This document shows positions 43,360-43,944 of a DNA stretch of 64,000 nt, piece after piece (the stretch's first letter is position 1; every line of letters starts with the position of its first letter). A program made the position numbers and the translations under genes. A model generated the notes under the pieces. The model searched no databases, had not been told where the DNA came from, and saw nothing but the letters and a program-made list of their open reading frames with translations. This DNA comes from a virus. Location of the stretch: the IMG/VR virus record IMGVR_UViG_3300027987_000266. One strand, 5' to 3'.

Positions 43360-43378
43360 TTTCTTCCTTTGTTCAAGC

Positions 43379-43460
43379 GGCAGAAGTAGGGAATCGAACC
43401 CTCTACTTCATGTGGTACTATCACAGGGCCTGTCTAGAATGCCCTGCTACCCTAACACAT
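43379..43460 (-). ncRNA. tRNA-derived T-arm/acceptor-like minihelix plus an adjacent hairpin (tRNA 3'-half-like element)
   Basis: Minus-strand RNA GAAGTA-G-AGGG-TTCGATT-CCCT-TACTTC forms a 10-bp helix capped by a T-loop. An upstream hairpin CAGGGC-N11-GCCCTG is present. No matching 5' half was found. Confidence 0.4.
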
Positions 43461-43578
43461 TTATTTGCCAGCTCAGAGTCTCCGCTGTTGTCACGGCCCG
43501 AAGCCGTGTCCCCCGAGCGACCAGGGGCCAACCTCTTGGGTCACCAAACTGACTCCCACCAGGGCCTGCCATATAAAG

Positions 43579-43718
43579 TCCGGGGTCCTCGATTCGAACA
43601 AGGGACCTCCGACATGTGAGAGAAATCCAGTCTATCGGTCGCTGCCAAGCGTCCCCGGCTTTGACCTCCAGTGTGCACAATCTCTCGTCGGTGCTCTAAC
43701 CAGCTGAGCTAACCCCGG
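43579..43718 (-). ncRNA. tRNA-like gene with a 74-nt structured insertion replacing the anticodon loop
   Basis: Canonical 5' part CCGGGGT-TA-GCTCAGCTGGTTAGAGC-A-CCGAC. Canonical 3' part GTCGG-AGGTC-CCTTG-TTCGAAT-CGAGG-ACCCCGG. The insert is closed by GAGAGA/TCTCTC pairing. Confidence 0.55.
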
Positions 43719-43944
43719 TAGGGTGGTGTTTCGGTTTAATCCTCCAACTGCTACATGGAGCGTAGGTCTGCGGGGACCACGTGCCTTAGGATGTCGGGTT
43801 GTGGCTTGGACCACCGGGTTCACGCCTTTTGGGCGATTCCCCGGCAATCCGTCCGTGCCTGCATCCATCTTGGGCATAATTCAGTAGCACGTCCCACTGC
43901 TGGGACGCCGTGTTTGGGCGATCCGTCGCCCGATATCCCCGTCC

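Follow-up and report, generated by a model that had tools for sequence, protein, structure and literature searches.

The question raised by this locus is what fills a gap of 586 bases (43359-43944) between two genes in a 64,000-nt viral sequence, the IMG/VR record IMGVR_UViG_3300027987_000266, the whole stretch of which is called here the window. The gap lies between the TAA of the upstream gene (43947-43945) and the ATG of the downstream gene (43358). A sequence-only reading had described it as a non-coding island of about 600 nt with several structured elements, suggesting one or more ncRNAs and, for one tRNA-like fragment, an integration-site remnant. All six-frame ORFs within the gap are shorter than 130 aa. 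The boundary placed at 43359 proved to be one base off, the ATG being at 43358.

The window appears to come from a large phage. Its long ORFs lie almost entirely on the minus strand, the standard genetic code fits it (minus-strand ORFs of at least 100 codons cover 90%), and relatives of the gene neighbouring the island are located on IMG/VR contigs of 176-498 kb. Of its eight ordinary tRNA genes, two, at 46766-46840 and 48666-48739 (both minus strand), have the opal-suppressor anticodon UCA, although the standard code fits and TGA is the commonest stop, used by 83 of the 143 window ORFs of at least 100 codons. A paralogue of the first suppressor, located at 47331-47411 (minus strand), differs from it in the anticodon loop, which has 9 nt, UUCCCGCAA; the ARAGORN assignment is either Arg(CCG) or, with a 2-nt “intron”, Gly(CCC), and the Rfam alignment shows a disrupted anticodon arm. 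Another tRNA-like match, at 63734-63798 (minus strand), scores low (30.9 bits); its D region and T-loop, GUGCGAAUC, are atypical, and ARAGORN misses it at default settings. Among the protein genes, a 955-aa ORF (38305-41172, minus strand) contains the shoulder domain of the Major Vault Protein (Pfam E = 1e-21) and a weak vault-repeat match, which seemed unexpected in a phage. The ORF at 54185-55570 (minus strand) encodes an adenylosuccinate synthetase homologue, assigned to the PHROG “2-aminooxy adenylosuccinate synthetase” (PurZ-like), and this gene hints at a modified-base (2-aminoadenine) genome.

Our analysis indicates that three structured non-coding RNAs are packed into the island as a compact cassette. 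Positions 43944-43379, read on the minus (coding) strand, are tiled end to end by three folded modules, L, A and B, separated by spacers of 4 nt (L-A) and 8 nt (A-B). Module L begins at the base directly after the upstream TAA and the acceptor stem of B stops 20 nt short of the next ATG, with no unused sequence in the island. The suggestion of one or more ncRNAs is thus borne out by three adjacent conserved structured RNAs; all of the hairpins listed earlier are present and are best read as minus strand. For the entire island, the minimum free energy (MFE) compared with shuffled sequences gives z = -3.2 for the minus strand, as against -1.2 for the plus strand. The alignments indicate that conservation with compensatory changes holds for B and L in related phages, while A appears as a conserved tRNA body with a window-specific insert.

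None of these RNAs corresponds to a family that we could find. The Infernal scan with Rfam, which had been recommended as a check, returned at gathering thresholds over the 64,000-nt window ordinary tRNAs elsewhere and nothing in the island. The region 43250-44050 was also searched with E values up to 10, RF00005 being absent even at E = 10, and four related loci (L003-L006) were included. No family for the island modules came out of these scans, their only other yield being two chance-level matches, to tRNA-Sec (17.5 bits, E = 1.5) and TCL6_1. ARAGORN at default settings made no call in the island, blastn against GenBank phages found no match, and neither did PHROG and Pfam for both flanking genes. 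A search of the literature revealed no description of L, A or B. These RNA genes go unannotated because the tRNA finders and Rfam miss them at default settings.

The upstream gene (43945-44355, minus strand) encodes a basic protein of 136 aa (pI 9.7), whose family matches nothing in Pfam or PHROG. AlphaFold models the protein confidently (pLDDT 92), and the model has no fold match in the PDB. This protein has 22 homologues in a large protein collection, and their contigs, together with 80 metagenome loci and 9 IMG/VR loci obtained by a family-alignment search, formed the comparison set (the loci are numbered below from L002). The slot that follows the 136-aa gene contains varied combinations of the same modules in the closer relatives, whose proteins are 52-89% identical: L in locus L003, where the contig ends before anything further; L and then A in L006; A and then B in L005 and in L096, where B is cut; B, an A-like element and B again in L007; a tRNA-like gene and then B in L008 and L009; B in L010; and A in L004 and L017. 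The island of L002 is identical to that of the window and adds no information, and a 1-nt indel between the window and its 89%-identity relative L003 is located in module L. Pattern scans of IMG/VR and GTDB with the 3′ half of A and the 5′ motif of B gave either no matches or chance matches that the covariance model of B did not confirm.

In more distant relatives, an amber-suppressor tRNA often occupies the same slot. A tRNA or tRNA-like call is located within 300 nt downstream of the 136-aa gene at 25 of the 78 loci with enough sequence, and among these calls tRNA(CUA) is the commonest (13/25). At 52 of 98 loci of the family, a CUA or UCA suppressor tRNA is found in the few kilobases around the gene, a strong link between the family and such tRNAs. 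We also observed stretches of about 200 nt with long hairpins after A or B in L004 (4603-4846), L010 (1260-1470) and L007 (3610-3912), which match none of the three modules; different RNA modules seem to gather in the slot.

The comparison with homologues for compensatory changes gave a positive result for B and for L, in which 22 of 33 and 16 of 52 pairs, respectively, are changed on both sides; these numbers are supportive and do not amount to proof, because the sets are small (six B, five long A and three L sequences) and the pairs were counted on the same alignments from which the structures were derived. Module L (43723..43944, minus strand) is a branched structured RNA of about 222 nt, which folds alone with an MFE z of -2.5. 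The GC hairpins noticed earlier at 43880-43930 do exist (GGGCGA-CGGA-UCGCCC at 43931-43916 and GUCCCA-GCAG-UGGGAC at 43906-43891, both on the minus strand), although they are not independent elements and belong to L, whose long arm reads CCGGGG-GAAU-CGCC-CAAAA-GGCG-UGAA-CCCGG. Searches using nhmmer with the L alignment matched only the window and L002, L003, and L006 and L013. The 52 pairs form the RNAalifold consensus of three sequences, and in the GUCCCA hairpin five of six pairs differ in L006.

Module B (43379..43570, minus strand) is a tRNA-like RNA of about 190 nt with a tmRNA-like topology: an acceptor stem, a mini D-hairpin (CCC-UGGU-GGG) and a T-arm enclose a middle part of about 140 nt. 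The 5′ strand of the acceptor, GGCAGG, begins eight nt past the discriminator of A and forms 6 bp (GGCAGG/UUCUGCC, with G1 at 43570 and C72 at 43379), pair 7-66 being a C.U mismatch; the 3′ strand, at the far end of the island, directly follows the T-arm hairpin. The discriminator is G at 43378, after which comes the ribosome-binding site of the next gene. Enclosed by the acceptor strands are the mini D-hairpin, two hairpins and a long arm ending in an apical hairpin. This apical element, CAGGGC-AUUCUAGACAG-GCCCUG (43424..43446, minus strand), is the previously noted CAGGGC-N11-GCCCTG hairpin, found at 43446-43424 as a part of B rather than as a separate structure; its loop carries the palindrome UCUAGA (43438-43433), which contains both CUA and UAG. 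Likewise, the ACGGC-UUCGG-GCCGU hairpin is present at 43507-43493 (minus strand) and is not independent, being located within the two-hairpin expansion of B (about 43533-43490). This expansion is found only in the window and in L096, where the cut copy has the window-specific hairpins with compensatory changes: its counterpart CACGGU-UUCGG-AUCGUG shows C-G replaced by U-A and G-C by G.U.

A covariance model of B (R1) matches the window, L005, L007 (twice), L008 and L010 with E values from 1e-25 to 1e-44 (125.9 bits and E = 9e-32 for the window), and it finds only these six source copies, from five phage contigs, among about 380 kb of related loci. Alone, B is not significantly more stable than shuffled sequences (MFE z = -1.1), and its structure is supported by comparison. 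In the alignment of six copies, 92% of the cells of the 33 pairs are standard, none of 500 shuffles attains the observed values, and the covariation score is 0.57 against 0.11-0.15 with slid partners. Covariation is seen in the acceptor stem, in the T-arm helices and in the apical stem, and GGUUCGA is invariant across all copies.

These data bear on the T-loop minihelix that had been placed at 43379-43413 and considered as an isolated element, possibly an integration-site remnant. The minihelix is real, though it had been copied with an extra T; at 43409-43383 (43383..43409, minus strand) the sequence reads GAAGUAGAGGGUUCGAUUCCCUACUUC, with the pairing GAAGU/ACUUC and AGGG/CCCU, an AG bulge and the T-loop UUCGAUU. 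It is the 3′ end of B, not an isolated element, since it pairs with the acceptor strand at 43570-43565, 190 nt upstream, in a stem that covaries. Acceptor pair 3-70 is C-G, A-U, G-C or G.U among the homologues, and because of this covariation the 3′ half of B cannot be regarded as a stray tRNA fragment. A search of the window for a second copy of the fragment at up to 3 mismatches found none. A more general reading would see in the island functionless elements, either decaying tRNA pseudogenes or the scar of an integration that duplicated a tRNA 3′ fragment, and it might appeal to the varying module content of the genomes and to the unique insert of A in the window, which is unlike the inserts of the relatives. 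Against it, the helices of B, L and long A are kept by compensatory changes in relatives with only 50-63% identity in the neighbouring protein, no part of the island is unused, and the T-arm of B has a covarying 5′ partner of its own with no duplicate in the window; we consider decay or scarring extremely improbable.

The domain formed by the two ends of B, an acceptor stem plus T-arm, is of the tmRNA type, and so B may be viewed as a miniature or degenerate tmRNA, serving either for ribosome rescue or for a block of host trans-translation similar to that by the tmRNA-like RNA of phage DS6A. Such a view agrees with the large domain enclosed by the acceptor and the T-arm, with the short D-loop analogue containing GG, and with the proposal of B by the ARAGORN tmRNA mode at a relaxed threshold; in addition, the L008 copy, and only this one, combines G3.U70 with A73 and an encoded CCA. 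The window copy, by contrast, has C3-G70 and the discriminator G, and pair 3-70 varies freely. At the default threshold, ARAGORN -m makes no tmRNA call in any B copy, and the tmRNA-clan models of Rfam do not match the island at E = 10. A tmRNA-like tag frame in B was rejected, as the candidate frames do not survive the 1-nt indels that separate the copies and end at non-conserved stops, and no pseudoknots were identified. The mycobacteriophage DS6A RNA, which is devoid of a coding sequence, has been reported to inhibit host tmRNA (PMC11915505). Because of this type of inhibitor and of the L008 features, a tmRNA mimic stays as a minor rival, which we judge quite unlikely.

B might also be a non-canonical amber suppressor, its apical loop sequence UUCUAGA displaying a CUA anticodon at a locus that in relatives is occupied by tRNA(CUA). 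The loop does have the form YU-CUA-GA, as does the AUUCUAGAU loop of the tRNA(CUA) in L034, and the prevalence of tRNA(CUA) among the slot calls of the distant relatives points in the same direction. Yet the loop of B has 10-14 nt instead of 7, on an arm that greatly exceeds an anticodon arm in length; the corresponding loop is UUCCUAGG in L005 and L008 and UUCUAAC in L007b, and CUA is absent from L010. Given also that the standard code fits the window, this function is very improbable. Two other candidates were rejected. A tRNA-Arg(UCG) with a 70-nt intron (43379-43537) is called by ARAGORN only under relaxed settings, alongside dozens of spurious candidates, and the D and anticodon arms assigned to it fall in the expansion restricted to the window and L096. 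An operator-like DNA palindrome was dismissed for the apical hairpin because pairing, G.U pairs included, is preserved in copies whose stem sequences are entirely different.

Module A (43579..43718, minus strand) corresponds to the tRNA-like gene with an insertion recognised in the sequence-only reading. ARAGORN in intron mode at the default threshold calls it tRNA-Val(CAC), c[43578,43718], placing an insert of 66 nt directly behind the 5′ strand of the anticodon stem, and the MFE structure (141 nt; z = -3.0) is the same cloverleaf with an extended anticodon arm. Its acceptor (CCGGGGU/ACCCCGG), D-arm (GCUC-AGCUGGUUA-GAGC) and T-arm (CCUUG-UUCGAAU-CGAGG) are canonical; the anticodon stem is CCGAC/GUCGG, the variable loop AGGUC and the discriminator A at 43579, with no encoded CCA. 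Thus the four arms of the canonical tRNA cloverleaf (acceptor, D, anticodon and T) are all found in A, and B is without normal D and anticodon arms. Both possess tRNA acceptor and T arms, and neither has a canonical 7-nt anticodon loop as encoded: in A, the loop region has 73 nt instead of a 7-nt loop with U33.

The tRNA body of A also occurs in L004, L096, L017, L005, L006 and L016, with C1-G72, C2-G71, G3-C70, A73 and the D and T arms conserved. What stands in place of the anticodon loop varies: in L004, L005, L006, L017 and L096 it is a two-hairpin domain of 91-98 nt, in L016 a 14-nt loop, in L008 a 7-bp stem closed by a UUUUU pentaloop, and in the window a 66-nt hairpin followed by CUCACAU. 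For the long form (five sequences), 23 of 47 pairs are changed on both sides and all eight helices are kept. The window insert (43621..43686, minus strand) is predicted to fold into a single irregular hairpin (GAGAGA...UCUCUC, with the apical part GCCGGG-GACG-CUUGGC); this prediction comes from energy calculation, because the insert has no homologue: its sole known copy elsewhere is the identical one of L002, and local alignment with the 91-98-nt inserts of the relatives gave a similarity no better than that of shuffles. In related phages we also observed tRNA-like genes with a closed anticodon arm, located in L027 (3000-3320), L029 (3020-3410), L099 (2520-2910), L008 (2618-2694) and L016 (2946-3027), where the arms are closed by 7 bp and a GCAA tetraloop, by 6 bp and AAACC, by 7 bp and UUUUU, or by a 14-nt loop. 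Some of these anticodon-less tRNA shapes are in tandem: L027, L029 and L099 harbour arrays of tRNA-like genes with arms ending in a GCAA tetraloop or a 5-nt loop.

The ARAGORN call raises the possibility that A is a true intron-containing tRNA-Val(CAC), from which self-splicing, or else an enzyme of the phage or the host, would remove 66 nt to give a mature tRNA decoding GUG. The heptamer CUCACAU (43620-43614), located directly after the insert, would then be a perfect anticodon loop with U33, anticodon CAC and A37, and UUCACAU at the same place in L016 is another perfect Val loop. A73 and AC at 35-36 (counted from the 3′ stem) are kept in all long-insert copies, as ValRS identity would need, the UUUUU loop of L008 being without AC; the lack of detectable similarity between the window insert and the long inserts is also compatible with splicing in the window. 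The difficulties come from the size, site and kin of the insert. Group I introns have a P1-P9 catalytic core and about 200 nt or more, so that 66 nt is far below their size, and the Rfam scan of the window and island gave no Intron_gpI match. A bulge-helix-bulge, in which the exon-intron junctions lie in two 3-nt bulges separated by 4 bp, was not seen on inspection of the fold at the junctions of A, where the stem runs on as GAGAGA/UCUCUC and the one bulge, of 4 nt (ACAU), is confined to the 3′ side. The insert is at position 31/32, which is not known as an intron site in bacterial tRNAs. In L004, L005, L017 and L096, no excision from the homologous inserts can produce a U33-bearing loop, and the L008 arm is simply closed. 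A spliced tRNA-Val is therefore unlikely, and because excision gives no U33 there, the insert is too small for group I and a bulge-helix-bulge is lacking, we read A as what appears to be a tRNA-shaped frame for another domain, not an interrupted decoding tRNA.

A feature common to B and to the domains carried by A in relatives is the palindromic apical loop, six bases long in both. In B, this is UCUAGA in the window and L007a and CCUAGG in L005 and L008, the palindrome being absent from two of the six copies (L007b and L010). In A, the loop of hairpin I is CGUACG in five copies, and that of hairpin II is UUGCAA in five copies and UGGCCA in two. Between the latter forms, positions 2 and 5 change together (U..A to G..C), and these positions are unable to pair within one chain because only 2 nt lie between them. 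A closely related signature, loop tetranucleotides that switch between palindromes, has been used to support symmetric kissing loops in OLE and GOLLD (PMC12286853). By analogy, the UCUAGA loop of B is a candidate for symmetric kissing between two B molecules, and self-association of B is a prediction from its sequence. In the B palindrome it is positions 1 and 6 that covary, and these could equally pair within one molecule to close a CUAG loop. Such a palindromic loop is retained in the window by B alone; the inserts of A in relatives carry two of them, which the window A would have lost.

The best reading of the island, which we hold to be probable though far from certain, is that of tRNA-framed non-decoding RNAs processed by RNases P and Z. 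No sigma-70 promoter-like or terminator-like sites were found inside the cassette, and for this reason it would be co-transcribed with the flanking genes. The acceptor stems that enclose A and B individually, and the 8-nt distance between the two modules, recall a tRNA cluster; on this basis, host tRNA enzymes may cut the transcript, RNase P acting at the 5′ ends and RNase Z with the CCA-adding enzyme at the 3′ ends, which would yield separate stable RNAs. We infer discrete ends, processing and stability of the island RNAs in this way from sequence features. The tRNA frame would serve as a scaffold for processing and stability, with the inserted domains rather than an anticodon as the working surfaces. 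A role in phage manipulation of translation, linked to the suppressor tRNAs, fits the location and is a speculation. More broadly, and as a tentative proposal that may well prove wrong, A and B could represent an undescribed class of natural tRNA-scaffolded RNAs of very large phages, in which the frame provides processing and stability, domains with palindromic loops take the place of the anticodon loop and bring about assembly from RNA alone, into homo-dimers or higher-order forms comparable to those of GOLLD, ROOL and OLE, and the RNAs act together with the 136-aa protein in the control of translation termination or suppression by the phage.

Large phages carry many tRNA genes, adjoined by a few enigmatic large RNAs such as GOLLD and ROOL, and here the tRNA fold itself has apparently been put to new use, framing other structured domains. 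Provided that the modules are stable and processed, they would add three unannotated RNA families and mark a recombination hotspot beside a conserved 136-aa protein and suppressor tRNAs. The slot would then be a concrete place for studying phage interference with host translation, and the palindromic-loop signature predicts RNA-RNA self-association in an easily handled RNA of about 190 nt, module B.

Among the known systems, GOLLD and ROOL are “ornate” RNAs of phages and prophages found near tRNA islands; the GOLLD linker can carry tRNAs, its loops switching between palindromes are read as symmetric kissing loops, and ROOL has one as well (PMC12286853). The island RNAs resemble them in being phage-encoded, located beside tRNA genes and having no known protein partner, and the homo-oligomers formed by GOLLD and ROOL through kissing loops are paralleled here by a sequence signature alone, that is, by apical loops switching between palindromes. 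In contrast to GOLLD and ROOL, whose Rfam models have no match in the window or in L003-L006, the island modules are far smaller (140-220 nt), shuffle independently between genomes and are tRNA-shaped in two cases.

With tmRNA (RF00023 and its clan), including the DS6A form, B shares the acceptor and T-arm around a large internal domain, the reduced D region, the occurrence in phages and the expected processing by tRNA enzymes, and it differs in giving no Rfam or ARAGORN match, in having no G3.U70 in the window, no conserved tag frame and no pseudoknots seen. At about 190 nt, B is also shorter than the standard tmRNA of about 360 nt. The tmRNA-like forms without a coding sequence measure about 65 nt (PMC11915505), and B is well above this size.

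Intron-containing tRNAs, whether of the bacterial group I or of the archaeal bulge-helix-bulge type, are similar to A as cloverleaves broken in the anticodon loop, and excision would give a perfect loop in the window copy; they differ from A, in which neither a group I core nor a bulge-helix-bulge is found, the site is 31/32 and the homologous inserts are not removable to a canonical loop. The species 1 and 2 RNAs of T4 (rnaC and rnaD) are small stable non-tRNA RNAs, which are encoded in the T4 tRNA cluster and co-processed with it; they are likewise non-tRNA RNAs of a phage, while their sizes and structures differ from those of the island modules. The architecture of A is also that of the engineered tRNA scaffold, reportedly introduced by Ponchon and Dardel in 2007, in which an RNA of interest is inserted in the anticodon stem for stable expression. 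Both combine an intact acceptor, D and T frame with a foreign domain replacing the anticodon loop, and whereas that scaffold is artificial, A would be its natural counterpart.
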